The notes beneath the pieces were generated by a model. The model made no database searches. It was not told where the DNA came from and saw only the letters and a list, made by a program, of their open reading frames with translations. From the NCBI GenBank assembly GCA_963701075.1, contig OY969559.1, positions 544,001-608,000 of the forward strand: 64,000 bases of DNA, written 5' to 3'. Positions 4,325 to 34,868 of this stretch are shown here, piece by piece. The stretch is from an uncultured Nitrososphaerota archaeon (GTDB taxonomy: Archaea > Thermoproteota > Nitrososphaeria > Nitrososphaerales > Nitrosopumilaceae). Both the position numbers and the translations under genes were made by a program. Position 1 is the first letter of the stretch, and each line of letters begins with the position of its first letter.

Positions 4325-5508
4325 TACGAAATGTTAGTCTTCTTTATGGCAAAGACCTGGATTATATTGTTAAAACAAACGTAAGAATTTCTAAAAAATA
4401 TATTGAATCAATAGGAGAAGGCCTGATACCTCACAGTAAAGAGAAAGTTATTGATTGCGAGGGTCTCTTGATGATGCCTAGTTTTGTTAATTCACATACT
4501 CACATAGGAGATTCTATAGGAAAGGATGTAGGAATCAATTCAGATGTGGAATCAAAGATTCACCCTGTAAGTGGATTTAAACAAAGAATTCTCAAAAATT
4601 CAGAGATCTCTCATCTTACAAATTTTATTAGAAATTCTTGTATTGCTATGATTCGAAAAGGAATAACCACCTTTATTGACTTTAGAGAGGGAGGCCTCGA
4701 AGGAGTCAAAATACTGAAAAACGCATCATCTAAAATTCCTATAAGACCAATAGTTTTGGGCAGAATAAATTATTATCAAGATTCTAAATTAATCAAGAAA
4801 AATGATTTTCTGCCAGAATCAAAAAAGACAGATCTTAAAAATCTTATAAAAAATTGTGATGGCTTAGGAATCAGTGGACCAAATGAGTTCAGCGATTCTG
4901 TCCTGAAATATTTCTCAAAACAGAAAAGCATGCGTGCGATTCACTCTGCAGAGACCGAGGAAAGCAATAGTATATCAAAAAAAATAACACAAAAAACAGA
5001 AACCCAGAGGGCTTTGCTTGCAAAACCAAACCTGCTCATTCATATGACATATGCCTCAAAAAGTGACCTTCTGCTTGCTGCCGGAAATAAAGTGGGTGTT
5101 GTAGTATGTCCACGCGCAAATGGTGCCCTTGCTGAGGGCATACCGGACATTAGTCTGATGATGAAAGCAGGATGTAATCTTACGATTGGCACGGATAATG
5201 TAATGATAAACTCTCCTGACATGTTCAGGGAGATGGACTATCTCTGGAAAGTTTCTATGGGCATGAACAAAACGCGAATATCTCCAAAATCTATACTAAA
5301 AATGGCAACGGTTAATGCCACAAATACACTTGGCAATAAAGTTGGAACTATTCAAAGAAATAGCTTTGCAGATTGTATATTCATAGAAAAACATGCAATT
5401 GATCTGGAACCCATGCATAATCCTTACGCGGCTATTGTACATCGCGCATCAGAGAGCACAATTAGAGCAGTAATGTTTGAGGGAGAACTAGTACATGGCA
5501 AATTCTAA
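4318..5508 (+). CDS. Metal-dependent amidohydrolase (TIM-barrel)
   Basis: NSHTHIGD, DFREGG, IHSAE, CPRAN, GTDN. Confidence 0.85.
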   Translation: MLIRNVSLLYGKDLDYIVKTNVRISKKYIESIGEGLIPHSKEKVIDCEGLLMMPSFVNSHTHIGDSIGKDVGINSDVESKIHPVSGFKQRILKNSEISHLTNFIRNSCIAMIRKGITTFIDFREGGLEGVKILKNASSKIPIRPIVLGRINYYQDSKLIKKNDFLPESKKTDLKNLIKNCDGLGISGPNEFSDSVLKYFSKQKSMRAIHSAETEESNSISKKITQKTETQRALLAKPNLLIHMTYASKSDLLLAAGNKVGVVVCPRANGALAEGIPDISLMMKAGCNLTIGTDNVMINSPDMFREMDYLWKVSMGMNKTRISPKSILKMATVNATNTLGNKVGTIQRNSFADCIFIEKHAIDLEPMHNPYAAIVHRASESTIRAVMFEGELVHGKF

Positions 5509-20439: not shown

Positions 20440-20717
20440 GCAGCAACCAACTCCAACTTTCTTAGTCTTATTCCTGGCACATTCCATTTCTTTTTACATT
20501 CAGGACATGCAAAAATAGGTGTCATCTTCTTTGTAGTCTTTGCCGGCTTGGCTAACTTGGGGAATTTCTGACCGCCGTATCCTTTCTTGTCTTCGGCGTG
20601 TCTTCTTTCACCTATTGCAGAACCTCGTCTTTTTCCTGCCTTGTACAAGGAGACCTTCTGTAGCGTATGTTTCTTACACTTGCGACAGTATCGCCTGATC
20701 TCCTTTGGCATGTTCAT
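20436..20717 (-). CDS. rpl44e: 50S ribosomal protein L44e
   Basis: YCRKCKKHT, GYGGQ, CPEC. Confidence 0.95.
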   Translation of the reverse strand: MNMPKEIRRYCRKCKKHTLQKVSLYKAGKRRGSAIGERRHAEDKKGYGGQKFPKLAKPAKTTKKMTPIFACPECKKKWNVPGIRLRKLELVAA

Positions 20718-20742
20718 AAAAGAAGACGATGGCTGACCGTAA

Positions 20743-20755
20743 TTTAAACATCGCT
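20743..20755 (+). repeat. attL core TTTAAACATCGCT
   Basis: Identical to 33053-33065; lies immediately upstream of the likely integrase start. Confidence 0.8.
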
Positions 20756-20773
20756 ATACCTAATGTCAAGCGT

Positions 20774-21886
20774 ATGTTAAATGAGAACGCACAAACTGAT
20801 ATCGTGGAGAAAAGTTTGCTGGTATTTGAAAAATATACCAGATCTAATGCTACAAGAAAGATGTATCGCTATCTCTTTGTAAGGTTTTTGAATTGGACTA
20901 AAATTAACGATGTGGATGGAATATTACAACTCAAGGAATCCTATCTACAACAATTAGTTGAAGATTATATTTTGTATATGCGAAAACAAATACTGCCAAA
21001 TTCATTCCAGCCTATTGTTGCATCATTAGAATTATTTTTTTCAATGAATGACAAGACCCTTAATTGGAAAAAAATCCGTAAGATGATACCTTCTCCTGTT
21101 AAGAAATCTGGATACAATGCTTGGCAAACAAAAGATATTGAAAAAATGCTTCAGCTTACCACATCCTTGAGAAACAAGGCTCTTCTTCACTTTCTTGCTT
21201 CTACTGCATGCAGGATAGGGGCAATATCGGAATTAAAGATAAAACATCTCTCTGACATGCCTGATAATTGCAAATCGGTATTGTTCTATGAGGGTACAAA
21301 CGAAGAATATGATGGATTTCTGACACCTGAAGCAAGTCAAATCATTAATGAATATCTAAACAAACGAAGAAAGGATGGCGAATATCTTAATGATGAATCA
21401 CCGCTTTTTAGAGCATCATACCAAGTAGGGGTACAAAAGGCTAAACCTCTTTCATTAAACTCGATTACCCAGATATTACACAGACTTGTCAAGCAAATTG
21501 ATACTAGAAAGAGGATTGGAAATAGGTTTAACGTAATGATGGCTCACGGATTTAGAAAGAGATTTGCTACGATCATCAAACTTGACAACAAGATAAGCTG
21601 GTCAGTTGGAGAAAGACTGCTTGGACACAAAACCTATCTTGAACGAGAATATTTCAGGCCAGTCAAGAATGAACTTTTTACAGAATTTAAGAAGATAATG
21701 CCTGATTTGATAATAGACCAGTCGGAGAAGCTAAGAGTAGAAGCACATCTCAAAGATGAACAAATGAGAAGGATAGAATCTCAAAAAGATGGTCTAATTC
21801 AGCAGCTCCAAGAACAGATTAAGGAAAATGAAAAAACTAAGACTAGCGTACAGAAGATATTAAATCATCTGAAGCTGGCATGCTGA
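20774..21886 (+). CDS. Tyrosine recombinase / integrase
   Basis: Catalytic R (ACRIGAI), HGFRK, LLGH, Y (EYF) and C-terminal coiled coil. The ORF track starts at 20729, outside attL; ATG 20774 is preferred. Confidence 0.92.
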   Translation: MLNENAQTDIVEKSLLVFEKYTRSNATRKMYRYLFVRFLNWTKINDVDGILQLKESYLQQLVEDYILYMRKQILPNSFQPIVASLELFFSMNDKTLNWKKIRKMIPSPVKKSGYNAWQTKDIEKMLQLTTSLRNKALLHFLASTACRIGAISELKIKHLSDMPDNCKSVLFYEGTNEEYDGFLTPEASQIINEYLNKRRKDGEYLNDESPLFRASYQVGVQKAKPLSLNSITQILHRLVKQIDTRKRIGNRFNVMMAHGFRKRFATIIKLDNKISWSVGERLLGHKTYLEREYFRPVKNELFTEFKKIMPDLIIDQSEKLRVEAHLKDEQMRRIESQKDGLIQQLQEQIKENEKTKTSVQKILNHLKLAC

Positions 21887-22464
21887 AATACCATTTTATT
21901 TGATACTTGTACGAAGAATTCTCTATGCATTGCAGGATCTGATTGCTCGAGTAGTTCGAATAAATTCTTAATTTTGCTCAAACCTGAATCCCCAAATCTC
22001 TTAATCGTTTTCTCAGTGATTTTTGCCGTATTGCCAGAAATTACTGTTAGTGTCAATATGCGATAGGTCTGGAACCAATCAAGAGTTTTCCTGACCAATA
22101 TTTTCATAAGACTAGATTTAATCTTCTTATTTTCACGAGTATTTTTTTTATGAAAATCTAGTGTGGACTTGACCGTGTCCGTTAATTTATCCAAAATATT
22201 AAGTTCATTTTCTAACCAGTACTGAATACTATCGTTCACCGTTTTAAGTCCAGAAGGTATCCAATACTTGCCTTTTTCTTTTTTTGTTGGTGGTGTAAAC
22301 TCTACTATTCCTTTTTTTACCATTTTCTTAAGATGTTCATTGAAAGTTCTAGTAGTACATTTCTTGATAGTCTGAACTTCATCAAACAATTCGTTGTAAC
22401 GGAAACTTTCTTCTCTAATCAAAGATCTAAGAATTGCATCTTCAAAATCTAAATTTTCACTCAC
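21865..22464 (-). CDS. Winged-helix transcriptional regulator
   Basis: FRYNELF...TRTFNEHLKKMVKKGIV...KYW wHTH pattern; convergent with the integrase. Confidence 0.7.
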   Translation of the reverse strand: MSENLDFEDAILRSLIREESFRYNELFDEVQTIKKCTTRTFNEHLKKMVKKGIVEFTPPTKKEKGKYWIPSGLKTVNDSIQYWLENELNILDKLTDTVKSTLDFHKKNTRENKKIKSSLMKILVRKTLDWFQTYRILTLTVISGNTAKITEKTIKRFGDSGLSKIKNLFELLEQSDPAMHREFFVQVSNKMVFQHASFR

Positions 22465-22514
22465 TATACTTGAGGTATAGCCGATTATTTATTTAACTAC
22501 TGAGATGATGAGTT

Positions 22515-22655
22515 ATGGCACAAATACACATAAAGGATCAAACGATCGACCGCATTGAAAAAATAACAAGAAAAAAATTTACTCGAGGTGGTGATCGATT
22601 AATCAATGAGGTTATTGACATTCTAGAAATGAGGAAAAATAATGAAAACATCTAA
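22515..22655 (+). CDS. Small ribbon-helix-helix-like protein (46 aa, not in ORF track)
   Basis: MAQIHIKDQTIDRIEKITRKKFTRGGDRLINEVIDILEMRKNNENI: beta-alpha-alpha pattern, overlaps the next ORF. Confidence 0.6.
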   Translation: MAQIHIKDQTIDRIEKITRKKFTRGGDRLINEVIDILEMRKNNENI

Positions 22656-22884
22656 GCCTAATTTTCCATTCGAGGATCCTAAGTACATTGATGATTCTAT
22701 TAACACAGAAATATGCCCTTCTTGTAATTTGTCTTTTTCAGAACATACCAACCATGAGATTGTAAAATGTGCATTAGACGAGCTAAGAGGTGGAAAGAAG
22801 CGGACTATTGACTTGACTGATCTGGAAAATAACGAATGGGTATGTGAAAAGTACCCGTCTAATAATCAAAATTGCGATCCATAG
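22642..22884 (+). CDS. Small putative Zn-binding protein
   Basis: CPSC..S.SEH.....C motif. Confidence 0.5.
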   Translation: MKTSKPNFPFEDPKYIDDSINTEICPSCNLSFSEHTNHEIVKCALDELRGGKKRTIDLTDLENNEWVCEKYPSNNQNCDP

Positions 22885-22898
22885 CAAAGAAAGGAGGA

Positions 22899-23063
22899 TT
22901 GAGTACAATATCCACTGATTCATTCTCGAATTTAACAACGATTACAATAACCGCTGAGACTCGCAGGAGATTAGAGGTATTATGCAAGAAAGATCAAGAT
23001 TTTGACAGTGTGATAAACAAGCTTATTTTACTCTCGTCTGACAAATTGGAGGATTTTTGGTGA
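22899..23063 (+). CDS. Ribbon-helix-helix (CopG-like) protein
   Basis: TTITITAETRRRLEVLCKKDQDFDSVINKLI; TTG start with a purine-rich AAGGAGG just upstream; directly precedes the putative rep gene. Confidence 0.7.
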   Translation: MSTISTDSFSNLTTITITAETRRRLEVLCKKDQDFDSVINKLILLSSDKLEDFW

Positions 23064-23890
23064 GTAACGGATCAGTAACACATCGAGGTCACGGATCAGA
23101 GTATGATATTGAACAGTTTTACAAAAGGGCTCTATCTATATGTGAAACTGGAAAGAGACCGTTTTGCTTTAAGGATTTTGATGATATCAGCCCAGGCAAC
23201 TTTAGGCAATATGTTCACAGATCAGGAAGCAAGATAGAGATTGTAAAAAAGGGAAGGCCAACACTGTACAAAGTTAGAGGAATTGAACTTGCAGGCGATT
23301 CCCATAGAATAACGAATAGGGTAACGGGGGTTAATCCAGAATTTGAACATCTACTAGAATCGCTCAGAGACCAACCTCCAATGATTCATGATATTCATCT
23401 AAAATTTGAATCTGAGTTGCATTCTAGTCTTGTTTCTAAAGGGTTATCGGTCAATCCAACTAATCACGCCATAGAGAACATAAGATATGCCGCACTTGAC
23501 AACAATATCAAAACCAAGATCCTGGTGTATCCATATACAACCCAGATTATCATAGGGTGTACTTGCAAACCAATTATCTATGATGCTTCAGGAATTTGGT
23601 CTCTATTTTCATATCTTTCTCAGGTACAATTTCATTTATCAGAACTAACAAACCATCAAGTCGTAATTCCAGAGGTAAAAACATGGATTGTTACACGTTA
23701 TGATTTCAATAAAGATGGTTCGGAATCAGTTATTGGAGGGCCTTTTTGCATGGAATTTCAAGATGTTTCAAATGGACTTATACGATTTTACCTAAAGAAG
23801 ATGCCAAACGGTGAAAGGATTCCAAGACTTGAACAAACTAGGACTCCTAACAAGTCGATTTCAGATATTGTGCAGGAGATCCTGTCGTAA
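23057..23890 (+). CDS. Putative Rep_trans/MOB_T-like replication initiator or relaxase with N-terminal HTH
   Basis: WIVTRYDFNKD, IRFYLK and RLE occur in the same order as the Rep_trans motifs; copG-rep gene order. By-eye inference. Confidence 0.5.
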   Translation: MVSNGSVTHRGHGSEYDIEQFYKRALSICETGKRPFCFKDFDDISPGNFRQYVHRSGSKIEIVKKGRPTLYKVRGIELAGDSHRITNRVTGVNPEFEHLLESLRDQPPMIHDIHLKFESELHSSLVSKGLSVNPTNHAIENIRYAALDNNIKTKILVYPYTTQIIIGCTCKPIIYDASGIWSLFSYLSQVQFHLSELTNHQVVIPEVKTWIVTRYDFNKDGSESVIGGPFCMEFQDVSNGLIRFYLKKMPNGERIPRLEQTRTPNKSISDIVQEILS

Positions 23891-23906
23891 TGAACAATTG
23901 AGCCAA

Positions 23907-24137
23907 ATGACCCCACCAAAGCCTCCCTCGTTTAAAGCTAAAACGGGAAGAAAGACAAAACGTGAAAGGATCCAACAAGACGGAAGATTAATGACAAACG
24001 CCATTCTGGGAGATAGTCCTTGGGAAGCTTCTCTTTACGCAGGATGTGGCTATGAATATGCGGTGAAAAAATTCCTAGAGTTTGGATTCATTTTTGATCA
24101 TAAAACACGACTATGGATCAGGATCAAACGATTCTAA
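23907..24137 (+). CDS. Small basic hypothetical protein (possible HTH)
   Basis: ORF continuing the rep operon; Lys/Arg-rich N-terminus. Confidence 0.45.
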   Translation: MTPPKPPSFKAKTGRKTKRERIQQDGRLMTNAILGDSPWEASLYAGCGYEYAVKKFLEFGFIFDHKTRLWIRIKRF

Positions 24138-24154
24138 GTAAATGTAGAGACTCA

Positions 24155-24385
24155 TTTTTACGTAAAATACGTAAATTTAGGCACGTAATGTTACAGGTTT
24201 TAGGGAATGGAGTCAGGATATGAAATTTTACGAAAAGTTCGTAAATTTAGGCACGTGATTTTACGGAATTTTCACAAAATGTGAAAATTTAGGCACGTGA
24301 TTTTTCACATTTTTGGTGAACTGGAAATAGAGGTTATGAAATTTTACCTATTTTGGGTAAATTTAGGCACGTGATTTTACACATT
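24155..24385 (+). repeat. Array of four hairpin + AAATTTAGGCACGT units (candidate origin)
   Basis: Cores at 24173, 24243, 24285 and 24359, each preceded by a 3-nt-loop hairpin; partial fifth core TTTAGGCACG at 24604. Confidence 0.9.
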
Positions 24386-24745
24386 TTTATGAGTAGAAGG
24401 GGGAATGAAATTTATGAATACAAAACATCGTCCCGAGTTTCGTTCCTAGAATAGGGGGATCACCAGGGAAAAATAGACAAAAAAGAAGGTGTGATACCGA
24501 TCCCGAGTTTTAGATAGCGTTAATGGAAGATATCTACGAAATTTTTGAGTAATTGTGGGGGTACTGATCTGCGTTTTATTATTTTATGTCATATCATCCT
24601 AATTTTAGGCACGAAAATATGGCATCATATGACCGAGGTAAAATTTCTGCTTGAAAGACATACTAACTTCGGTATAAAAAAAGATGAGATACGATCTAGA
24701 ATTTGTGGTCTTGCATGTGTATGATCAGAGATAATTTCTAAAACA

Positions 24746-24916
24746 TCAAACATCAGTACTTTTTGCAAGGTAAATTTTGTCATTTTCTTCTACGAACATG
24801 ATAGTCTCTCCTTCCTGAAGATGATATTTCTCTCTGACCTTCTTTGGTATGGTTACCTGGAACTTGTAGCTTATGGTCGTCATTCCAAGTATCTCTTTCT
24901 TTGAATCCTTTATCAT
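24746..24916 (-). CDS. AbrB/MazE/SpoVT family DNA-binding protein
   Basis: TTISYKFQVTIPKKVREKYHLQEGETIMF; start uncertain (24883, 24916 or 24958). Confidence 0.85.
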   Translation of the reverse strand: MIKDSKKEILGMTTISYKFQVTIPKKVREKYHLQEGETIMFVEENDKIYLAKSTDV

Positions 24917-25090
24917 TATTACTTGCCTTGATTGTAATGAATGTAAAGCAAGATTCATTAATTAGACCCAAGAAAGTAAAGAATTCTTGGAAAGTAAAGA
25001 TAATTTCATTCATGGATTAAGAGATTCCAGAGTTGGGATGAAGATAGAACCGTACCAAGTTCTATTTGTTAAATTTTACAATCGAGAACT

Positions 25091-25744
25091 ATGAAGCTTA
25101 ATCTCAATTATTCTGTCACTAGTACTTGCAAGCTCTGTCATAGGATATGGTGTACAAGCATCTGCTCAGATGACAGGTGGCGGGATCTGTGGTAATCATC
25201 CATGTGCACCAGGAGAGGTCTATCCGCCAAGTACCCCTTCATCAGGAACTGGAATTACAGTCTCAACTGACAAACCGTCATATAATTATGGTGACACCAT
25301 TACCATATCGGGTACAACGAGTGTTTATCTTGGTGATACCCCTCTTACGCTTATTCTAAGAAATCCAGTTGGAAATATTGTCATAGCAACACAACTCACA
25401 GTGGGAACAGACGATACCTTTTCTGAGACTGCGGTTGCTACAGGTGCACTGTGGCAATCTGCTGGTACGTATACAATATCTGCCATATATGGTAACACAA
25501 ACATGTCTGCTACAACCACATTCCAGTTCTCAGGTTCTTCTTTACTCCATCAAGTCCAAGTACTGTACCAAACGCTGGCACAAATGCTACTATTCAACAA
25601 CCACCATCTTCTACCACCCCGCAATCAAAGATTCCCGCTTGGGTCAAAAACATCTTCATCTGGTATGGCAGGGGCAGCATCTCAGACGATGAATTGATAG
25701 GTGCCATACAGTTTCTTATACATCAGGGAATAATCAAAGTCTGA
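25091..25744 (+). CDS. Secreted/surface protein with Ig-like domain and thaumarchaeal C-terminal IPxWVKN domain (two apparent frameshifts)
   Basis: Signal peptide MKLISIILSLVLASS after correction at ~25099; STDKPSYNYGDTITISG; after a shift at ~25542 it reads IPAWVKNIFIWYGRGSISDDELIGAIQFLIHQGIIKV*. Confidence 0.75.
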
Positions 25745-25915
25745 AATTTTTGAATTACAAAACATCAACCTGAATTTCAGAAAACTTGATTCTCTTTGCG
25801 GTATCTATGGCATCACTCATACACAATTAATATGTAATACTAGTAAAAAATCATGATAACGATTACTAATGATTTGTACATTAGAGAAGAAAACTAAACA
25901 GAATTAGTTTTGCAT

Positions 25916-27355
25916 CTACTCAGTAATATAATGACGATTCTTAGGCCACATTTTGAATATTGGTTTATACTTATCCATTTTCAAGTAATTCTTTACAATT
26001 TTTATCTTGTTTTCTAGTTTTTCTGAACCTTGTTGGAATTGTGCATTTTCCAGCATAATGTATAATTCGTCTTTTGTTTTGTTTAAAATAACATATGTTG
26101 CAATAATTATTCTCGCATAATCCATCATCAAGAAGCCAAATTCATCCTTATTCTTGAATCGTTTTTTTATTGCCTTTTCAGTTTTATTACTCATTTTATC
26201 GCCATGAACATATTTGCTTCTTACATCATATGCAGTCAACATATCATCATACACCTTCTTCGAATCTAGTCCGATTAAACCTAATAATTTTGAAGAATTT
26301 AACGCAAATCGTAACTTTTGATCTCCCTCGGATTTAATCAATAATGCTTCGATAGCCATAACTGCATATGATACTGAAATTCGGATTAAATGAATTGATT
26401 TTAATCCATTCATATATCGTGATAATGATATTTCTAGTTCATTATCTTCCCTGTAATGGTTAACTATAGATCTAGTTAATCGTTTTTCCATTACTCCATA
26501 AAATAGCTTAAGATATTCTATCTCATTTTCTTTAATTCTTGCGTAGTATTGTAATCCTGGATCATGATAAAACCCCAATCTATACGTGCCATGAAATGTA
26601 CGTTCTATGTTTGAAGATTTGTTACTTATTCCAATACAATCAGGCGATGATAATTTGAATAATGTAAGAATTAATTCGATTTTTTTTAATGTTTCAAAAC
26701 TGTGATCATATTTCAAATCTTGTTTATACGTAAATTCTAATATGCAAAAACATTGCTCTACTACCTCATTATAATCATCCCATTCCTCTGGTTTAACTTC
26801 GATCTCAAAATCTTTCTTGTTGGCTTTTCTTATTCTAAGATATTTGTTTACGATGATTTCGTTTTGTTCTATCATAATTCCTGAAAGATAAGATGTTGTT
26901 TTGATTATCGGCAGTTCATCTTTAATCGAGTTAATAAGGTATTTCACTAAATTCTTAACATTAAAAAATTTTGTATCATGCTCATAACAAAAAACAAATA
27001 ATGCTTTTTCTACAAACGCTCCAAAAAGAAATTTATCTTCGTTCTTACTAATTTTGTTTATTCTTTCATTCATTTTTTTGTAAAAATCATCTTGTTTCAA
27101 ATCATTATGTGCAACGTAAAGGAGTCGATCCCAATCAATTTTTTCTTTAGTATCTGTAAATCTGTCAATAGAATACCATTTGTGAAACTTTGACCATCTT
27201 ACATTTGGAATTTTATAATATTTTTTACCCAGGGGGTGGTTTCTTTTTTTCAAATCTAGAACTAAATTTCGTAGATATGTGGTATACCTATACAGATCTA
27301 TCTCAATCTGTTTTAATTCTTGATCTGATGAAGACATGGAGTCATTATCTTTCAA
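25916..27355 (-). CDS. HEPN-domain protein (ApeA-like), putative anti-viral RNase
   Basis: AIEALL and RSKYVH (Rx4H) HEPN motifs in the C-terminal half. Confidence 0.75.
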   Translation of the reverse strand: MKDNDSMSSSDQELKQIEIDLYRYTTYLRNLVLDLKKRNHPLGKKYYKIPNVRWSKFHKWYSIDRFTDTKEKIDWDRLLYVAHNDLKQDDFYKKMNERINKISKNEDKFLFGAFVEKALFVFCYEHDTKFFNVKNLVKYLINSIKDELPIIKTTSYLSGIMIEQNEIIVNKYLRIRKANKKDFEIEVKPEEWDDYNEVVEQCFCILEFTYKQDLKYDHSFETLKKIELILTLFKLSSPDCIGISNKSSNIERTFHGTYRLGFYHDPGLQYYARIKENEIEYLKLFYGVMEKRLTRSIVNHYREDNELEISLSRYMNGLKSIHLIRISVSYAVMAIEALLIKSEGDQKLRFALNSSKLLGLIGLDSKKVYDDMLTAYDVRSKYVHGDKMSNKTEKAIKKRFKNKDEFGFLMMDYARIIIATYVILNKTKDELYIMLENAQFQQGSEKLENKIKIVKNYLKMDKYKPIFKMWPKNRHYITE

Positions 27356-27463
27356 TTGTTTTTATTGATAAAGTAATCTGAAGTTTTAGAATTAGTATAA
27401 CAATAGGCCAGAACAAAATTGGCCTGATTCAAGATTATATACAATGTTCTGCTTCGTAATCTA

Positions 27464-28834
27464 TTGAGCATATTTTCTAAAAAAATCGATTCAATAACCC
27501 GAGAAGACTTGGAATCTCTGATAAGAGAATCTGAACGAGAGAGCATACAACTTGATTATAAACAAGGCATAAATCCTTCAGAAAATGGCAAACATGATTT
27601 GGTGAAGCTGGTAGTAGGAATGGCAAACACAGAAGGGGGATACATAATTTTTGGAATTAATGAAGACAAACAAAAGGGAATACCGACTAAAATGGAAGGA
27701 ATAGATCCATCTGTTGGAGGACAAAAGGTTGACGAATGGCTAGAAAATGTCATCAATCCCCACATAAGTCCAAGAGTTGTAATTAGGATTAAAACTATAG
27801 CACTTGAAACCAAAATAGCATTAGTTTTGTGGGTACCGCAAAGTACAAGAAAGCCGCACATGTCGACCCTTGATAATGACTTTAGGATTTACCGACGTTA
27901 TAATACTCAGTCACTGCCTGCCAGTGAAGGAGAATTAAGAGAAATGTATCTTGCATCTAATAAAATTGAAAGAGTAAGAGAAGATTTCATATTGAAAAAA
28001 AATCTTACTAATGTCTCAAATAAGGAATTTGGTCTAACAACAAATTCTGATAACCTCCTGTCAAAGCTTGGCATAGAAAATAAGTATGAATATCCAATTG
28101 TGACGCTTTCATCCTGCCCTAGGTTTCTAGAAGAGAAAGTAAATTTCTCATCTGACACTTTTCAATCATGGCTGTCGAAAAATTCTTTTACAAAAATCCA
28201 GAATCAAGATATAGAAATTTTTCGTTATAATCCACCTATTCTAGAACAAAATTCGATAACAATATTGCGTAAGATGGGAATGAATGATAAAATATTGGAA
28301 TACCTTGAAATCCAAAGAAATGGATTTATTGAACAATGTAAAACATTACAACTTATTCATTCTGATGGAAACAAATTTGTATTAAATCTTGGGAGATTAA
28401 CTGTTGCACTTTGGGCATTTTTATATTATGTAAAAAATTTCTATCAACAAATTGATTATTTAGATGAATTTTCTATTTTTATGTCCATTAGAAATTCTAA
28501 TCGCCTTGAACTATGCGGTTTGTTAGGACTATCCGAAAGAGGACACCCGTATTCTACTGAATCAGATGACCTTTTTAGATATCTGGATATTACCCCCATG
28601 TATACTGCCACTACGTATGATCCAGTTTTTCCTACTACTCAAAAGGAACAAAATCTATCACATTCAGTTAATTTAACTATGAATAATCTCACGGATGAAG
28701 AGATCTATGACATTGTGAAAAATTTTGCAGATAGGATAAGTAATGCATTTGGTTTGGCTAAAGCACATTGTTATAATAACGATGGAACATTTGTTAATAG
28801 ACACTTAGACTTTTACAACAAACTACTATCTTAA
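27464..28834 (+). CDS. Schlafen AlbA_2-domain protein with uncharacterised C-terminal domain
   Basis: RESIQLDYK, MANTEGGYIIFGINE, KPH, IYRR. Confidence 0.85.
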   Translation: MSIFSKKIDSITREDLESLIRESERESIQLDYKQGINPSENGKHDLVKLVVGMANTEGGYIIFGINEDKQKGIPTKMEGIDPSVGGQKVDEWLENVINPHISPRVVIRIKTIALETKIALVLWVPQSTRKPHMSTLDNDFRIYRRYNTQSLPASEGELREMYLASNKIERVREDFILKKNLTNVSNKEFGLTTNSDNLLSKLGIENKYEYPIVTLSSCPRFLEEKVNFSSDTFQSWLSKNSFTKIQNQDIEIFRYNPPILEQNSITILRKMGMNDKILEYLEIQRNGFIEQCKTLQLIHSDGNKFVLNLGRLTVALWAFLYYVKNFYQQIDYLDEFSIFMSIRNSNRLELCGLLGLSERGHPYSTESDDLFRYLDITPMYTATTYDPVFPTTQKEQNLSHSVNLTMNNLTDEEIYDIVKNFADRISNAFGLAKAHCYNNDGTFVNRHLDFYNKLLS

Positions 28835-28881
28835 CGCAGTATACTTGTGATCATTGAAGAAGATTCAATTATTTATGACAT

Positions 28882-29184
28882 TCAAACAGGTCTCAGAAGC
28901 TCTTCGATTTTTGTGAGGATTACTTCATTTTCCACAGTTTTTTTTCTTACCTCTTCATTCATCTGTTCTTGATTTTTCTTGTATGTTCTGAGTAATTCAT
29001 AAATTGAAAGCCTTTCCTTTGCACGATCCTCAGTGGTTTTGAAAAGATTATGATCTGCCCAGAATCGTTGGTGACATTTACTACACATCGGTTCAGATAC
29101 TCCAGATGAAAAGACACGTTTACACGTAGGTCTGGGACACTGGACATATCTTGGTTGATGGGTACGCATCCAAATACCGCCCAT
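28882..29184 (-). CDS. Zn-ribbon + coiled-coil protein
   Basis: CPRPTC...CSKC, helical C-terminus. Confidence 0.65.
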   Translation of the reverse strand: MGGIWMRTHQPRYVQCPRPTCKRVFSSGVSEPMCSKCHQRFWADHNLFKTTEDRAKERLSIYELLRTYKKNQEQMNEEVRKKTVENEVILTKIEELLRPV

Positions 29185-29245
29185 GTTATATAGATAACAT
29201 TTTTTTGTATTTTAATGTTATTGGATAACAGAACTTTTAATATAT

Positions 29246-29266
29246 ACACTACTAGTATAGTAGTGT
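29246..29266. promoter_or_regulatory. Inverted repeat operator ACACTACTA-GTA-TAGTAGTGT
   Basis: Perfect 9-bp arms between a TATA-like TTTAATATA and ATG 29281; extra half-site AGTAGTGT at 29272. Confidence 0.6.
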
Positions 29267-29280
29267 GGAGAAGTAGTGTA

Positions 29281-29923
29281 ATGCAAATAGAATTAGATCA
29301 AAAGAAAATAGCAAGAAGCGGAGGAAGCACCGTATTGTACCTATCTAATGATGCTAAAAAATACATTCACGAAGGTGACCTTGTAGATTATCAAGTAATT
29401 CTAGACGATAACGTAGTAAAGATATTCATAACAAAAAAGCTGTTCAATTTTACTCTTGAAGATATCAAGAATCTCGTAAAAAAACATGAATTTGAAATAG
29501 AATATGATAAAACACTAGATCATATTCTGGTATTTAACGCAATAAAAAATCATCTTTCATTAAGACTATACTAAGAATGTTAATGAAAAAATATCTCCAG
29601 CAAATATTGCACTTTCTTTAACATGGCCTGACGTGAATGATTATGAAAAATACAAACATGTAACAGAACAGATAGATCAATTAAAAAATAAATACGATTT
29701 GATTACAAGAACTGAAGGAGATTTGGATGTGATTAACATACTGAAAGAACCATCTAGATATAAAGTGGACATAGTAGAGGCATTAAAACTACTTAAGAAA
29801 GCTGGCAAGAAAATAGGCTTATCAGCTGTAATTCGATTTGATGATGGAAAAGACGATCTTAATCGTATATCTAGTGCCCTCAACGAATTAATGACCTTAG
29901 ATTCCAAGATCTCTTTTCAATAA
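29281..29923 (+). CDS. AbrB-like N-terminal domain protein (apparent frameshift at 29565)
   Basis: KKIARSGGSTVLYL...EGDLV AbrB signature; removing the extra base in AG[a]CT fuses it to ORF 29633..29923. Confidence 0.7.
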
Positions 29924-30511
29924 GTGTGCTAGCCGTAACATTATAGGTGTAACCGTAGGTTTTCTATCTAGACCGCTTATTTCTGCTTCAATGATAGTGT
30001 CAGATGAAATAATTTTCTCATCCCCATTAAGTTTAGAAACTATTATCACTACAACACGAACTCCAATTTTTTTAAAGAATTGCTTCCATTCATCAATCTT
30101 TTCAGTTTCATCTTCTTTACACACTATTATTCCATGTGTAGCCACTTTGAAAATCATCTCTGATTCTTTTGATATACGACCTGGGCCATCGCCAATTGCA
30201 ATAACATGACTTTGAGAAAGACTCTTAAATTCTTGAACCGCGGTTGTTACCTCTTTTGTTGTAACATTCGTTCGTTTACGGGAATCTCTATCTTCTTTTG
30301 TCATATTGCCAATGATAAATTCAATTGTTTGAGACCATAAATCCAATTCTTTGTGATCTGCATCTACGGCTATATCTTGTAAGGCTCTTGTAATACGTAC
30401 CGCAAATGTACTTTTTCCAGAATTGGGTGGACCACCAATAATGATTCTAATTGAGGATTTTTTCTCTATGCCTAGCTCTTTTCTGTGTTTGTGATGACTC
30501 ATCTTAACCAC
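29897..30511 (-). CDS. P-loop NTPase resembling the ATPase domain of Csx3-AAA fusions
   Basis: IIIGGPPNSGKST Walker A, IGDGPGRIS, ATHGIIV, W..F motifs. Confidence 0.65.
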   Translation of the reverse strand: MVKMSHHKHRKELGIEKKSSIRIIIGGPPNSGKSTFAVRITRALQDIAVDADHKELDLWSQTIEFIIGNMTKEDRDSRKRTNVTTKEVTTAVQEFKSLSQSHVIAIGDGPGRISKESEMIFKVATHGIIVCKEDETEKIDEWKQFFKKIGVRVVVIIVSKLNGDEKIISSDTIIEAEISGLDRKPTVTPIMLRLAHLLKRDLGI

Positions 30512-30557
30512 AATGAGTGTAGTAATCCTTTATATATTAGGTTTTAATGCCTATAGC

Positions 30558-31607
30558 ATGGCTGTTAGGGCCAATTCACGCACACGAAAGATGGAAATTC
30601 TGCAATTTACCTTACTTGCATCTGAACTAGTTTGGCGGGGGCGAACTCCATTTTTTGCCATAAATTCCAACAGATTTGGTAAACCATGGGAAGTTGAAAT
30701 AAACTATGGCCACGGTGAAGTAAAAGATATCCGAAAAAGAACAGAAAACGGTCCAAGCCGAAAGATCTTCCGGCAGTACCTTCCAGAACTACTCAAAGAG
30801 CGACTACTTACTAGAATAATTACAAAAGATAAAAAATCAAAATATTATTCAATTACTCCTCTTGGAATCATACATTTAATAAAATCTGAAATGTTTTTTG
30901 ATGGCGTCAGATATCCTCATCCTGAACGTAATTATGTATTATTGAGACTGGAAACATTTGCTGAACAAAATGTAAAGCCCTATAAGAGTATAATTTTTGA
31001 AAATGAGAAATTTTTCAAGTCTGATATCGATTTATTGAATGATATGTGGAAATCTCATCTTATTAGTCTTAGAGAAGAAATAACGCATGTTTTTACAAAC
31101 GTTGACATAATACAAGAACAAATGAATACAGAATATGAGTGGAATCACATGGAATACTATATTACAAATGGATATTCTGACGGAAATAGAATAAGATTAG
31201 CAAGCTTTGATTTAGAAAATAATAACTATGTAAAAATAACAGAATTAAATCAACTTCCTTCAGTAAGAGGCAGTGATTCTTCTGAACGTGAAGATAACGC
31301 TTTGATCCTAGATTCAGATCAGTTTAATCATTATCTGGCAAATCTTATGCTTTGTTCATTAATTTACGATAGTATAATGGCACACTATGATATAGCTAGA
31401 TATAGAAAAGTAAAGTGGGGTAGGAAAAAAGAATCAACAAAGACCATGGATGAGGAATTCAAAGAAGATCTGAAAAATATCCCGGAATATTTTTTGCGAA
31501 TACTCTTCTTATTTAGTAAACATATTTTACGCATAACGCAAGACCAATATCAATTAACAGTCAGATTTAGTGATAATTTGACTAAAACTCAATTCATAAA
31601 AAACTGA
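30558..31607 (+). CDS. Hypothetical protein with N-terminal winged helix
   Basis: QYLPELLKERLL...KYYSITPLG wing motif; TTTATATA at ~30528 favours ATG 30558. Confidence 0.6.
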   Translation: MAVRANSRTRKMEILQFTLLASELVWRGRTPFFAINSNRFGKPWEVEINYGHGEVKDIRKRTENGPSRKIFRQYLPELLKERLLTRIITKDKKSKYYSITPLGIIHLIKSEMFFDGVRYPHPERNYVLLRLETFAEQNVKPYKSIIFENEKFFKSDIDLLNDMWKSHLISLREEITHVFTNVDIIQEQMNTEYEWNHMEYYITNGYSDGNRIRLASFDLENNNYVKITELNQLPSVRGSDSSEREDNALILDSDQFNHYLANLMLCSLIYDSIMAHYDIARYRKVKWGRKKESTKTMDEEFKEDLKNIPEYFLRILFLFSKHILRITQDQYQLTVRFSDNLTKTQFIKN

Positions 31608-31625
31608 TTAGTATATCATGATTCC

Positions 31626-31772
31626 ATGATCGGTATACTTCCTTATTTTTACTTAAGGAAGAGCGACAGAAATCGAGCTAAAAAATGTTTGATATTAGGA
31701 ATTGTTGCTATTCCTGTCTCGTTTGTGGTTGGATTGTTCGCTATTGTAGCGAGTATTTTGATCAATCATTGA
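31626..31772 (+). CDS. Small membrane protein or gene fragment (48 aa, not in ORF track)
   Basis: MIGILPYFYLRKSDRNRAKKCLILGIVAIP..., one hydrophobic helix. Confidence 0.4.
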   Translation: MIGILPYFYLRKSDRNRAKKCLILGIVAIPVSFVVGLFAIVASILINH

Positions 31773-31878
31773 CCCATACTCAAAGCCCACTTGGACTAGA
31801 ATATCTGATCTAAAATTTATAACTATAATTTAGCTGGTTTGTAATTGTTTATAATCAATTAGTAATTTAGTTATCAAG

Positions 31879-32505
31879 GTGTACCATAACTACTCTTTAC
31901 TAACTGTCAAAAAATTATTTAGTCTTCATAATAATCACTGTGCATTTCTTGGATGTAAGCAGGAATTAATTACAACAGACAAGAAAATCAATGTTTCAGA
32001 TATATGTCACATTGAAGGAGGAGAAGAGGATTCACCTCGATATAATCCTAGTTTGGGTCCAGCAGAATTAGATGATTACGAAAATTTAATCTTAATGTGT
32101 AAGGTTCATCATAAAATAATCGATACTGATACCATGACCTTCACCGTATCTTATTTAAAAAAATTAAAGATTGAACATGAGAAAAATCAAAATGGACAAG
32201 TATATTCAATTTCAGATGAAGTGGCAAAAAGGATCATTGCAGAACAAATGACTCAAGTAAATGTGAATGCGGGTTCTGGAATTCAAAATATTACTCAAAA
32301 AGGTGATATTATTCATTATGATAATCCTCCTTCTTCAGATGGTCCTTTGATGATATTTTATCAGATACCTAGGAATTGCATATTATGCGGGAGTATGAAT
32401 ATTCGACATATGGAGGGATTTCAAATGAATGGTCGTGAACGCAGAAATAGAACATGTAGAGATTGTGGTGCTATTATGATTTTAGCGGACGGAATAGGAG
32501 GATAA
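31879..32505 (+). CDS. HNH endonuclease with C-terminal Zn ribbon
   Basis: CAFLGC, ICHI, PRY, NLILMCKVHHKIID; C-terminal CILCG...CRDCG. Confidence 0.85.
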   Translation: MYHNYSLLTVKKLFSLHNNHCAFLGCKQELITTDKKINVSDICHIEGGEEDSPRYNPSLGPAELDDYENLILMCKVHHKIIDTDTMTFTVSYLKKLKIEHEKNQNGQVYSISDEVAKRIIAEQMTQVNVNAGSGIQNITQKGDIIHYDNPPSSDGPLMIFYQIPRNCILCGSMNIRHMEGFQMNGRERRNRTCRDCGAIMILADGIGG

Positions 32506-32622
32506 ACTCCAACTGCCATCTTTCAATCATGCCAAAATTAGTTAGACGAATTATTGTTATAGATAGACGGTAAATACGAACTAAGAATTAATTTAAGTAG
32601 TAAATCCATTACCTAGAACTGC

Positions 32623-32928
32623 TTGAGCTGGAAGTCGTTTAGAGATGATTATCTTACTAATCTTTTCATCATTTGGCACATAATATTAACTGGAATCAAT
32701 CTTCTGAGTCATGCTTCACCATTAATCAATAGTTTTAGAACCTTGCTATGGGCCAATGATGGATGGCTTGTAATAATAATGCCAATTGCGATAACGGAAA
32801 TTTACTACCAAGTTATGATGATACGAAACAATCCAGAATTTTTTGAAAAAGTCAGACATGGAATAGAAAATATGCTCTTGCCCCGTTTATTTGGGCACGA
32901 GTTTTTACAGATATCATTCTTGCCTTAG
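32623..32928 (+). CDS. Small membrane protein
   Basis: Two hydrophobic segments. Confidence 0.4.
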   Translation: MSWKSFRDDYLTNLFIIWHIILTGINLLSHASPLINSFRTLLWANDGWLVIIMPIAITEIYYQVMMIRNNPEFFEKVRHGIENMLLPRLFGHEFLQISFLP

Positions 32929-33052
32929 TAGGAGTTTCCCTTATCATAGGCGACCAATTTCCTGGTTCCATCATAGACATAAACAAGTATAATTTTTGGG
33001 ACGTGTTCTCATATGTGGCTATTTTACTTTCTTTAACTTACGTTTTGCAAGG

Positions 33053-33065
33053 TTTAAACATCGCT
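33053..33065 (+). repeat. attR core TTTAAACATCGCT
   Basis: Identical to 20743-20755; just upstream of adenine deaminase. Confidence 0.8.
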
Positions 33066-33094
33066 TTAATAATGTATTTGCCCAAAGTCACTTT

Positions 33095-34868
33095 GTGAAG
33101 GCCAGCTCTCTTGCATCTATGATTGGTTCACTAAACAAAGTTGCGATGGGCGAAAAAAAAGCAGACATTGTATTGAAAAACTGCAAACTTGTCAATGTAT
33201 ACTCGAGAGAAATAATACCGCAAACACAGATTGCCATTTTTAAAGACAGAATTGCATATGTTGGAAAGGACGCGTCGCATACTGTTGGTGAAAAAACTGC
33301 AGTCATTGACTTGGAAGAAAAATTTGTCACTCCGGGATTTGCAGATTCACACATACACATGGACCAGTACATCATGCCTTCTGAACTTGCAAAACATTCT
33401 CTTCTATGTGGAACTACTACATTATTTTCAGATCCAATTGATATTGTAAGTGTTTGTGGATACCGGGGCTTTAGGGAATTTGTCAAGATGACAGAGAATC
33501 TACCAATAAGGGTATTTCACATGATACCAGGCGGTCTTCCAGTTGACAGAAAGTTTAGTCATGCAAGAACAATATCACAGACAGAACAGAAGAGGGCCTT
33601 TGAATTAGAAAATGTTCTTGGCATGGGGGAAGTATTTTCCTGGACCAAGGTCACAACGCGGGATCCAAATACAATTCAAAGTCTAAATTACATTCTTGAA
33701 AATGATGGAATCATAAACGGTCACACTGCAGGTGCAAGCGACAAGAAGCTGAAATGCCTACATTGCATCTGGAATATTATCATGTCATGAGCCAATAGAC
33801 TATGATCAAGTGATGGAGAGACTAAGGCTTGGAATGTGGGTTATGATGAGGGAAGGATCGATACGAAGAGACCTTGATAAGATAATACCAAACGTGCTAT
33901 CTCAGAAGACCTATTTTGATAGGCTGATGTTTTGCACTGATGGAGTAACTCCAAAGGATCTCTTAGACTTTGGCATGATTGATCATTGCATCAGAAAATC
34001 AACATCTATGGGAATGGAATTGATAGATGCGATAACCATCGCATCTCGAAACTGCTTTGAATATTATAAGATGGATAAAGACTTGGGGGGAATTGCTCCG
34101 GGAAAGCTTGCCGACATTCTAGTTTTCGGTGATCTAAACAAGGTAAAACCGGACAAGGTCTTCGTGGGAGGAAGATTAGTGGTGGCTCACGGTAAACCTG
34201 TATTCAAAAATGCAAAACTAGCAATCTCAAAATGGATGACAGAAACGGTAAAAGTACGACGTAAATTTACCGAGAAGGATTTTGTGGTCAAGAGCAAGGA
34301 AAATTCTACTCAAGCCCTTGTAATCCGACTAGATACTGAAATTATAACAAGAAAGGATCATGAAGAGCTTTGCGTAAAGGACGGAAATGTAATTGCTTCT
34401 CAAGAGAAAGATGTCTGGAAGGTGGCAGCAATAGACAGAACATATGGTACTGGACAGCAATGTGTTGGATTCTTGAAGAACTTTGGTGGTGAGATTGGAG
34501 CCTTTGGATGTACGCAGAGCTTTCATGAAAATGACCTGATCGTAATTGGCTCCAATGAAAAGGACATGGCCTTTGTGACAAACGATCTAGTAAAAACGCA
34601 GGGTGGAATGGTTGCTGCAAGAGATGGAAAAATAATCTGCAAATTTGAAATGCCTGTTGCAGGCCTAGCCTCCAAATTACCCCTTGAGGAGGCAGTAACC
34701 AAGTACAAGGAGGTTGACGAAAAGCTAGTTGAGGCAGGATGCAGATTTAAACAACCTCATCTAATTCCGCTCTTTCTCCCATTTCTTGCATTACCGGAGA
34801 TTAGAATCTTGTATAGCGGTATAGTAGATGTTAAAAACAGAACTTATCTTAAAATTTTGGATGGATAA
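33095..34868 (+). CDS. ade: Adenine deaminase (apparent frameshift at ~33751)
   Basis: PGFADSHIH, GMGEV, NGH, SCHE (after correction), MREGS, FCTDG, IAPGKLADI; GTG start at 33095 assumed. Confidence 0.9.

Follow-up and report, generated by a model that had tools for sequence, protein, structure and literature searches.

Here, we describe an array of four hairpin-plus-core units in a 64,000-nt stretch of contig OY969559.1 from an uncultured Nitrososphaerota archaeon (the window, to which all coordinates refer). The array lies inside an integrated element of 12,310 nt (20756–33065) whose host is probably a Nitrosotalea-like ammonia-oxidising thaumarchaeon. Our tentative reading, drawn from computational analysis, is that the array may be a rolling-circle-type (double-strand-origin) replication origin of the element, used by the element's own protein p277 (277 aa; 23057–23890, + strand). 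This protein has an N-terminal winged helix and a C-terminal pseudo-dimeric domain resembling TATA-binding protein (TBP), and it is a candidate Rep_trans-like initiator or nickase. The TBP-like fold is common to the Rep_trans initiators (pT181 RepC/RepD) and to the archaeal Rep-Arvir initiators. A preliminary description of the same DNA had listed an origin for the adjacent Rep-like protein among several candidates. It is the leading one on that list, given the winged helix, the TBP-like fold and a conserved tyrosine motif in p277, although the protein matches neither PF02486 nor PF25227, the profiles of the two initiator families.

The four units follow one another in direct orientation on the + strand, and direct reading of the sequence gives for each an 8-bp hairpin with a 3-nt loop and then TTTAGGCACGT(G/A)A. 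Unit 1 (24157–24194) has the left arm TTTACGTA (24157–24164), the loop AAA, the right arm TACGTAAA (24168–24175) and the core TTTAGGCACGTAA (24176–24188), after which comes TGTTAC. In unit 2 (24227–24265), the arms TTTACGAA (24227–24234) and TTCGTAAA (24238–24245) enclose the loop AAG, and the core TTTAGGCACGTGA (24246–24258) is followed by TTTTACG. The same core stands at 24288–24300 in unit 3 (24269–24309), between a hairpin with the arms TTTTCACA (24269–24276) and TGTGAAAA (24280–24287) around the loop AAA and a trailing TTTTTCACA, and at 24362–24374 in unit 4 (24343–24380), where the left arm is TTTACCTA (24343–24350), the loop TTT, the right arm TGGGTAAA (24354–24361, with one T·G pair on the + strand) and the trailing sequence TTTTAC. 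The preliminary description had reported these four hairpins with their constant core, and a third partial copy of each unit's own left arm after the core, and direct reading agrees with it on both counts. Its core spacing and its lone partial core at 24604 were recovered by a repeat finder, which placed the core starts at 24176, 24246, 24288 and 24362 (spacing 70, 42 and 74 nt). The lone core, TTTAGGCACGAAA (24604–24616, + strand), sits inside an imperfect inverted repeat of 19 nt (24588–24633), in its loop region; the fold of this repeat is no better than that of shuffled sequences (z −0.9).

Across the units, a 25-nt direct repeat, GTAAATTTAGGCACGTGATTTTAC, is present four times at 88–100% identity. 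The shorter word TTTAGGCACG occurs exactly five times in the window, always on the + strand and within 440 nt, with one more site at 32890 that has one mismatch; in shuffled sequences the mean count at up to one mismatch was 1.97, and 1/100 shuffles reached 6. The 14-mer AAATTTAGGCACGT is found exactly only at the four array sites in the 1.9-Mb genome, with a single one-mismatch site elsewhere. By position the array region is non-coding, as it occupies a 608-nt gap between the stop of a 76-aa open reading frame (ORF), p76 (24137), and the stop of a convergent AbrB/MazE-like gene (24746), and the ORFs that overlap the units are all short (≤36 aa). The array starts 20 nt past the p76 stop, the units lie 20–250 nt after this final gene of the p277 row, and 5/5 cores are on the p277 strand.

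Other repeats also touch this gap. A stretch of about 36 nt after unit 4, GAAATTTATGAATACAAAACATC... (24406–24441), recurs with 84% identity at 25742–25778, 3' of a 175-aa gene, and at the equivalent place a related metagenome contig from run X6 is closer to this second copy. A perfect 12-nt inverted repeat, GAAATTTTACCT / AGGTAAAATTTC (24338–24349 and 24636–24647, 286 nt apart), joins the left side of unit 4 to sequence after the lone-core hairpin and may be due to chance.

The hairpins had been described as conserved in structure and variable in sequence, and the alignment of the four units bears this out. The helix of left and right arms pairs in 32/32 cells, 3/8 pairs are changed on both sides, and a pairing or covariation score as high arose in 1/500 column shuffles. 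Differences between units 2 and 4, which are almost the same over 50 nt, cluster at the hairpin tip, where 7/8 of them fall in nine positions (three inner pairs plus the loop; hypergeometric P 2.8e-6). The 13-nt core has 0/13 differences among units 2–4 and 1/13 relative to unit 1, and the tip differs at 3–7/9 positions. A constant core coupled to a hairpin with a hypervariable but always paired tip is an unusual pattern. At a Rep_trans or Rep-Arvir origin, an inverted repeat of variable sequence is expected as the binding or specificity site, and such a repeat, 8 bp with a 3-nt spacer, precedes every core here.

Folded as single-stranded DNA, the hairpin of unit 3 clearly beats shuffled sequences (z about −5), and units 1, 2 and 4 reach z −1.6 to −2.5. 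The third arm could in principle compete for the right arm, and two alternative folds per unit had been suggested on this ground. The case for this is strong in unit 3, which alone forms the helix of right and third arms strongly (a 12-bp perfect stem) and in which both alternative hairpins are strong (z about −5 each). In units 1, 2 and 4 this second helix is weak, and over the alignment it is paired in 87.5% of cells, a value equalled by 66/500 shuffles. Selection on single-stranded structure, also put forward in the preliminary description, is in line with pairing that is kept despite sequence change, but the symmetry of the palindromes could also be kept by hairpin-templated mutation and not solely by such selection.

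Modelled at full length, p277 has a predicted local distance difference test score (pLDDT) of 73.8, and its N-terminal winged helix aligns with PefI over 63 residues (VIA Z 8.4, root-mean-square deviation (rmsd) 2.4), with many regulators next in rank. Residues 92–276 modelled alone (pLDDT 86.4, predicted template modelling score 0.78) give a TBP-like pseudo-dimer. The best solved matches of this domain are TBPs (VIA Z 7.5, rmsd 3.9, 137 residues aligned; Foldseek E 3.5e-5) and its lower-ranked matches are the rolling-circle initiators RepDE 4cwc (Z 5.5, rmsd 4.9, 139 aligned) and RepSTK1 4cij (Z 4.6; Foldseek E 8e-3, probability 0.97), all at Z values below 8, which may mean only a common arrangement. 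In BFVD, p277 has as neighbours TBPs of giant viruses, Inoviridae proteins (one of them under the name 'GST REP') and A0A2N9QVX7. Across 62 relatives of p277, down to 21% identity, H110, P171, D219, Y244 and R256 are invariant and K246, E258 and W209 nearly invariant, and the protein carries the signature RxYxK…RxE, in which the tyrosine is Y244. We infer that these residues have the look of an active site and not of a DNA saddle. An initiator of the Rep_trans fold would be expected to have a catalytic tyrosine and acidic residues that bind metal, for which Y244, D219 and E258 are the candidates. The pT181 initiator RepC (NC_001393) carries RLD142, RIY191NK and WRVE214, of which Y191, the catalytic tyrosine, D142 and E214 are as given where a 2026 paper discusses RepC (PMC13107129). 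A protein search with RepC itself listed close relatives only (≥86% identity), and a single RepC fragment was used for the comparison. When the p277 family was aligned with a RepC fragment by hhalign, the sole aligned stretch was ...LIRFYxK with ...FIRIYNKK, which places Y244 on the catalytic Y191.

No family in Pfam, PHROG or NCBIfam matched p277. A profile search recovered 554 representatives of the p277 family at E ≤ 1e-3 (clusters at 50% identity), and the family is present in 61/401 genomes of the order, with named relatives from Nitrosotalea and other Thaumarchaeota; none was found in the viral contig set. In one soil-lineage family (39/111 genomes), p277 relatives are often multi-copy within a genome. 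In one locus (L006), a p277 homologue adjoins what by eye is an apparent terminase gene, and some p277 copies may on this account sit in proviruses. Literature searches and a term search of a 2025 virome preprint on ammonia-oxidising archaea, covering main texts, returned no description of the p277 family or of the array.

The same 2026 paper, in its passages on the Rep-Arvir proteins (DUF7845), describes archaeal initiators with a winged helix and a TBP-like fold that is related to Rep_trans only structurally (PMC13107129). One of them, RepSNJ2 of the haloarchaeal pleolipovirus SNJ2, shares several features with the system described here: an archaeal integrated element, a protein with a TBP-like fold plus a winged helix, and a candidate origin in non-coding DNA 3' of rep. 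SNJ2 replication requires rep together with a non-coding stretch 3' of it, in which a non-conserved inverted repeat adjoins a conserved hairpin; replication is lost when the stem of the hairpin is broken or its loop mutated, and it survives a change of the inverted repeat that keeps the symmetry (PMC13107129). This layout was equated by its authors with the bind and nick sites of pT181 (PMC13107129). The array likewise has a non-conserved inverted repeat beside a conserved element, which in the SNJ2 origin must be hairpin-displayed. The Foldseek neighbours of RepSNJ2, giant-virus TBPs (A0A2N9QVX7 among them) and an Inoviridae replication initiator (PMC13107129), are of the same kinds as those of p277. 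However, p277 is about half the size of RepSNJ2, has its winged helix before the catalytic-like domain and not after it, and carries RxYxK in place of KHYYM. SNJ2 also has one inverted repeat and one hairpin, whereas the array has four complete units and a lone core, and its variable repeat overlaps the conserved element.

The double-strand origin of the pT181 family (RepC/RepD; PMC4797284) resembles the array in having a conserved nick element beside a variable specificity repeat, as set out in PMC13107129. RepC itself resembles p277 in its TBP-like saddle and in a tyrosine within R-h-Y-x-K followed by R-h-E (RIY191NK...WRVE214 in RepC). The pT181 system differs in its single origin inside the rep gene, its unrelated nick sequence and its bacterial host, and it has no similarity to p277 at the level of hidden Markov models.

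MOB_T relaxases carry an N-terminal helix-turn-helix ahead of a nicking domain of the Rep_trans type, and p277 has its domains in the same order. The members RelSt3 and NicK of ICESt3 and ICEBs1 act, in the accounts given for them, on integrated elements, as would be the case here (PMC9371924, PMC6499999). Unlike these systems, p277 has no sequence similarity to MOB_T relaxases and its element has no conjugation genes that we recognised.

If the array is a rolling-circle origin, the element would excise, and p277 would then use its winged helix to bind either the inverted repeat, as double-stranded DNA, or the core. Extrusion or melting of the AT-rich DNA would expose TTTAGGCAC in single-stranded form between GTAAA and TTTAC, and Tyr244 would nick the + strand within the core, priming leading-strand rolling-circle synthesis. 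The multi-copy state would have arisen by local amplification between ATGAAATTT repeats, given the single unit that a related element seems to have, and the extra units may be further Rep-binding sites and not nick sites, or by-products of replication. The related element is represented by a 7.5-kb contig from run X6. This contig follows the window at about 90% identity through the end of p277, p76 and unit 1, as far as 24205, and four 1-nt indels surround its unit-1 hairpin. From there it passes directly to the equivalent of about 24395 onward, and 24206–24394, which holds units 2–4, appears to be absent, in a layout deduced from the joints. Hence, the X6-related element appears to carry a single unit, unit 1, and 24206–24394 looks like an amplification, or a loss, between ATGAAATTT repeats.

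An extended form of the origin reading, which is speculative and to us very improbable, would make the array a multi-specificity origin. Four copies of one nick or recognition core would each carry a different hairpin tip as an address code, like the variable IR-III of pT181-family plasmids, and several Rep alleles of related elements or viruses could fire or silence it. The 9-nt tip would then be under diversifying selection in an arms race over Rep/origin compatibility, and p277 would be the founder of a new family of Rep_trans-like initiators that only ammonia-oxidising archaea have.

Several observations weigh against a rolling-circle origin, and they concern the layout of the array, the protein and the distribution of the array. 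Rolling-circle origins usually have a single nick site, and by the pT181 literature four identical direct cores should cause deletions during replication. The array has four identical cores and one partial core in direct order and so departs from one nick site per replicon, and we hold the origin reading only tentatively because four direct identical cores should be unstable in an active rolling-circle replicon. The hairpin of right and third arms that would present the core in its loop is weak in units 1, 2 and 4 and stable only in unit 3. For the protein, TBP, a pure DNA binder, outscores the Rep proteins as a structural match, and the Z values of 4.6–7.5 to TBP and Rep proteins are in the range in which a match can reflect a common arrangement and nothing more. 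The hhalign match to RepC is weak (E 0.05–0.06, probability about 1%). Profile matches in the p277 family for PF02486 (Rep_trans) and PF25227 (DUF7845/Rep-Arvir) numbered 0/26 (E ≤ 10) and 0/62 (E ≤ 1), and a six-frame search of the genome with PF02486 at E ≤ 10 gave none. A Rep-Arvir protein has a catalytic TBP-fold domain at its N-terminus and a winged helix in its centre; p277 has both domains, in reversed order.

The distribution of the array points the same way. Similar arrays beside homologues would be expected of a conserved origin in the preliminary description, and none was found: at 8 loci there was no direct-repeat family of at least three copies after the p277 homologue, and 27 further p277-homologue loci had no comparable array, only unrelated short tandems. 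The negative counts over other genomes take in some unpublished genomes (G132, G231, G327, G364 and G407), on which no positive claim rests. In the other genomes of the class, the combination of core and hairpin was not found; the 14-mer at up to one mismatch is scattered in 134/400 of them and forms a cluster only in this genome. Against 60 genomes of the genus, the array gap gave only short marginal matches. An exact 16-mer was found once each in 1 viral and 62 metagenome contigs, and the hairpin in none of them (best 6/8 stem positions). A site of the form CGT(C)AATTCTAGGCAC...TTACG lies 45–50 nt after the homologues of two loci (L008 and L012), and its resemblance to the array unit is not significant, as its score of 22 under unbiased local alignment of the 26-nt unit was equalled by 5% of shuffled regions. 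From these searches the array appears to be private to this lineage.

The loci downstream of p277 homologues have features of their own. L008 and L012, whose homologues are 35–44% identical to p277, have within the 100 nt that follow the gene the sequence CCTTC-ccg-GAAGG ... CGTCAATTCTAGGCACACTTACG, that is, a mini-hairpin and then TAGGCAC between CGT(C)AA and TTACG; the layout is that of an array unit, and we regard it as a lead rather than evidence. In the DNA 3' of the homologue at 36 loci, TTTAGGCAC at up to one mismatch gave five + strand matches within 70 nt of the stop (L007, L008, L012, L117 and L131). A blastn-short search for the unit downstream of p277 homologues returned nothing below E 0.05, and perfect stems were found around 1/15 TAGGCAC sites as against 690/7200 random positions. 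A 40-nt match to unit 3 with 83% identity in one genome of the genus (G429) was taken as chance, as it lies inside a 248-aa ORF with no element genes around it. The gap alignment with the Nitrosotalea devanaterra element (L007) showed no meaningful conservation; that gap (4870–5330) has by eye two diverged direct repeats of about 55 nt (…ATGTCTTAG…CAAAGT…AAAAATGA…) about 390 nt apart, on which the repeat finder was silent, and it also contains TTTTTAGTCAC, which differs from the core at one position and lies 55 nt past the stop of the p277 homologue. In L010 (1269–1332), 15–80 nt after the p277 homologue, two mini-hairpins with perfect stems and loops of 1 nt (TACCCGGAAA-a-TTTCCGGGTA and ATCCGGTAA-t-TTACCGGAT) are placed like the array and unrelated to it in sequence. 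Short tandem repeats that are mutually unrelated lie within 0.6 kb of other p277 homologues, at L120 2930–2981 (3 × 15 nt), L135 1451–1482 (2 × 16 nt), L128 1224–1255 (2 × 16 nt) and L113 2857–2906 (2 × 19 nt, 31-nt spacing).

Other explanations have to be weighed against the origin. The units could be tandem promoter/operator elements, in which TAAATTTA within the core is a TATA-like box, the palindrome an operator for a small DNA-binding protein (ribbon-helix-helix-like, p76, AbrB-like or the p277 winged helix), and units 1, 3 and 4 drive short transcripts that start about 25 nt downstream; we think this unlikely. A purine-rich stretch and ATGAAATTT, which contains an ATG, do follow units 1, 3 and 4 after 43–48 nt, several small DNA-binding proteins are encoded on the element, the host L44e promoter has gtTTAAATTacgg at about −30, and across the genome TAAATT and AATTTA are enriched 3.4-fold and 2.5-fold in the interval from −45 to −18 relative to 1033 crude gene starts. 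However, the top promoter words of the genome (TTAAAT, TAAATA and TTAATA; 6-fold) are absent from the core, TTTAGG is only 1.4-fold enriched, and the array lies at the downstream end of its gene row, opposite a convergent gene. A single repressor would also be unable to read four palindromes unless it contacted only the outer TTTAC/GTAAA. In the X6 related contig, the stretch equivalent to the last ATGAAATTT seems to be CTGAAATTTTT. The products would be peptides of 12–14 aa whose differing residues correspond exactly to the compensating stem bases, which suggests that the constraint acts on nucleic acid, and the small peptides MKFYEKFVNLGT and MKFYLFWVNLGT were rejected as products on the same observation. 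A role in RNA, with the units as stability hairpins in the 3' untranslated region of the p277–p76 transcript, as oligo-T terminators or as small RNAs cut from that transcript, is in our view improbable. It would fit the position of the array on the coding strand 20 nt after the p76 stop, the T5 runs after units 3 and 4, the only non-Watson–Crick pair (T·G on the + strand, which is a tolerated G·U in RNA) and the folding of a 281-nt stretch as RNA, which is better than that of shuffles (z −3.2). Nevertheless, it leaves an invariant unpaired 13-nt core in four copies unexplained, the centroid structure keeps few helices of the minimum-energy fold, and there is no Rfam match even at E ≤ 1.

If the units were theta-type iterons, GTAAATTTAGGCACGTGATTTTAC would be bound as double-stranded DNA, either by the winged helix of p277, which would be an initiator that does not nick, or by a protein for partition or copy control, and the hairpins would be incidental. 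Iterons of theta plasmids are several direct repeats of about 20–25 bp by the gene for a winged-helix protein (Konieczny et al. 2014, as cited in PMC6563490), and the array, with four 25-nt direct repeats of 88–100% identity beside such a gene, is similar. Winged-helix proteins have also been proposed, by analogy with iteron plasmids, as initiators of small thaumarchaeal elements, in the passage of Krupovic et al. 2019 on this point (PMC6563490), and short tandem repeats occur near some homologues, such as the 3 × 15 nt in L120. An iteron origin has three or more direct repeats at regular, helically phased distances, whereas those of the array are irregularly spaced (70, 42 and 74 nt). Ahead of every repeat stands a palindrome whose compensating changes and hypervariable tip iterons would not explain, and the neighbouring protein has a putative active site, its invariant or nearly invariant His/Asp/Tyr/Lys/Arg/Glu set being equally unexplained. 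With no ParA-type partition ATPase recognised on the element either, we rate iterons as poorly probable, much as we do the RNA role. The array could finally be a functionless recent amplification, in which a quasi-palindrome was duplicated by slippage between ATGAAATTT repeats and template-switch mutation keeps the arms complementary in the absence of selection. The apparent single unit of the related element, which is without 24206–24394, would fit, as would the absence of the array from all other genomes and contigs searched, the lack of conservation with the equivalent gap of the N. devanaterra element and the thermodynamic weakness of 3/4 hairpins. Neutral decay should not, however, spare a core with 0–1/13 differences next to a tip with 3–7/9, unit 1 is kept in the related element at about 90% identity, and all five cores keep the same strand; we regard this explanation as quite unlikely.

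Further identities were rejected. A clustered regularly interspaced short palindromic repeat (CRISPR) array would, with the 25-nt repeat, have spacers of 45, 17 and 49 nt, the 3' end of each spacer pairs with the next repeat, and the repeat is found nowhere else in the genome; no search for Cas genes was made. Single-stranded DNA recombination sites, one of the earlier candidates, gained no positive evidence: in the scanned part of the element, the only recombinase is a phage-type tyrosine integrase, which sets aside integron attC sites, IS200/IS605 ends and REP/BIME, since these call for an integron integrase acting at the array or a Y1 HUH transposase, and the 13-bp att site of this integrase is at the element ends, 3.4 kb from the array. 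The same distance from attL speaks against integrase arm-type sites, which are expected near the att site. The processed small-RNA array that had also been suggested likewise found no positive support, as none of the described RNA families (Rfam 15) reached its gathering score anywhere in the window, and 24050–24800 had no match even at E ≤ 1.

Two findings set the ends of the element, namely a direct repeat of 13 bp and a related metagenome contig in which the site is empty. The left copy of the repeat TTTAAACATCGCT (attL) is at 20743–20755 on the + strand, where host sequence ends at 20755, and the right copy (attR) is at 33053–33065 on the + strand. Metagenome contigs related to the window track it up to 20755 and then diverge. 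In a 62-kb peat-metagenome contig (run X6), identity is about 94% up to 20755 and the next 30 nt equal window 33066–33095 at 29/30 positions; by this alignment the contig is the empty site of the element. The G+C content falls to 0.29–0.35 across 26–33 kb, in line with the extent of the element, and the flanking genes are archaeal (thermosome, ribosomal protein L44e and cobamide genes). The repeat TTTAAACATCGCT overlaps the TATA-like box of the host L44e promoter (gtTTAAATTacgg, at about −30 of the start at 20717, − strand). To the right of attR, adenine deaminase is present as two ORFs in different frames, 32996–33790 (amidohydrolase N-terminal part) and 33810–34868 (Adenine_deam_C part), which could be due to a frameshift, a sequencing error or a genuine split. 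There is no tRNA or tmRNA gene in the window.

At the left end of the element, a tyrosine integrase of 385 aa (20729–21886, + strand; Pfam Phage_integrase 2.7e-10, phrog_216 integrase) has its first 9 codons in the host flank and att sequence. Because the att repeat gives the ATG and the first nine codons of this ORF, the 5' end of the integrase must differ in the excised circle, a change comparable to the 'operon restored on excision' of SNJ2. A 199-aa ORF without a Pfam or PHROG match (21865–22464, − strand) is divergent from the p277 gene row. This row begins upstream of p277 with ORFs of 46 aa, 80 aa (Cys-rich) and 63 aa (DUF7557, ribbon-helix-helix-like, 2.1e-5, below the Pfam cut-off) at 22515–23063 on the + strand, and it ends with p76 (23907–24137, + strand), which has a basic N-terminus and about 90% identity in the related metagenome contig. 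The convergent AbrB/MazE-like gene (24746–24958, − strand; Pfam MazE_antitoxin 4e-8) has a homologue with 85% identity at the corresponding position of the N. devanaterra element. A section of the 175-aa gene (25325–25541) matches several further contigs in each metagenome run compared, as diverged copies of the same length, which points to a protein domain that is repeated or multi-copy in the population. Possible defence-type cargo lies in 25900–32950 and comprises Schlafen/AlbA_2 (27464–28834), an AAA/kinase-like P-loop protein (29897–30511, − strand) and an HNH_2 nuclease (31879–32505), together with large ORFs that match no family (25916–27355, − strand, and 30513–31607). General Pfam and PHROG scans recognised no virion, conjugation or known replication genes on the element, and 22500–25200 had no match in the phage and plasmid collections searched. 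In being small, integrase-bearing, without virion or conjugation genes and in an ammonia-oxidising host, the element resembles the thaumarchaeal cryptic integrated elements described by Krupovic et al. 2019, for many of which no replication protein was identifiable in the account given there (PMC6563490). It differs from them in its att site, which is in the L44e promoter region and not in a tRNA gene.

Relative to known bipartite rolling-circle origins, the multiplied units, the hypervariable but paired hairpin tips and the unannotated TBP-fold family alongside are probably new. To our knowledge, ammonia-oxidising archaea have no plasmid vector or genetic system. If p277 and the array form a minimal replicon, the TBP-fold, Rep_trans-like rolling-circle initiation described for Rep-Arvir (PMC13107129) would extend to a second, unannotated family, and the pair would be a candidate rep-plus-origin cassette for vector building, as was done with SNJ2. 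It would also name a replication module for ammonia-oxidising archaea, whose integrated elements, as surveyed in 2019, often had no nameable replication protein (PMC6563490).

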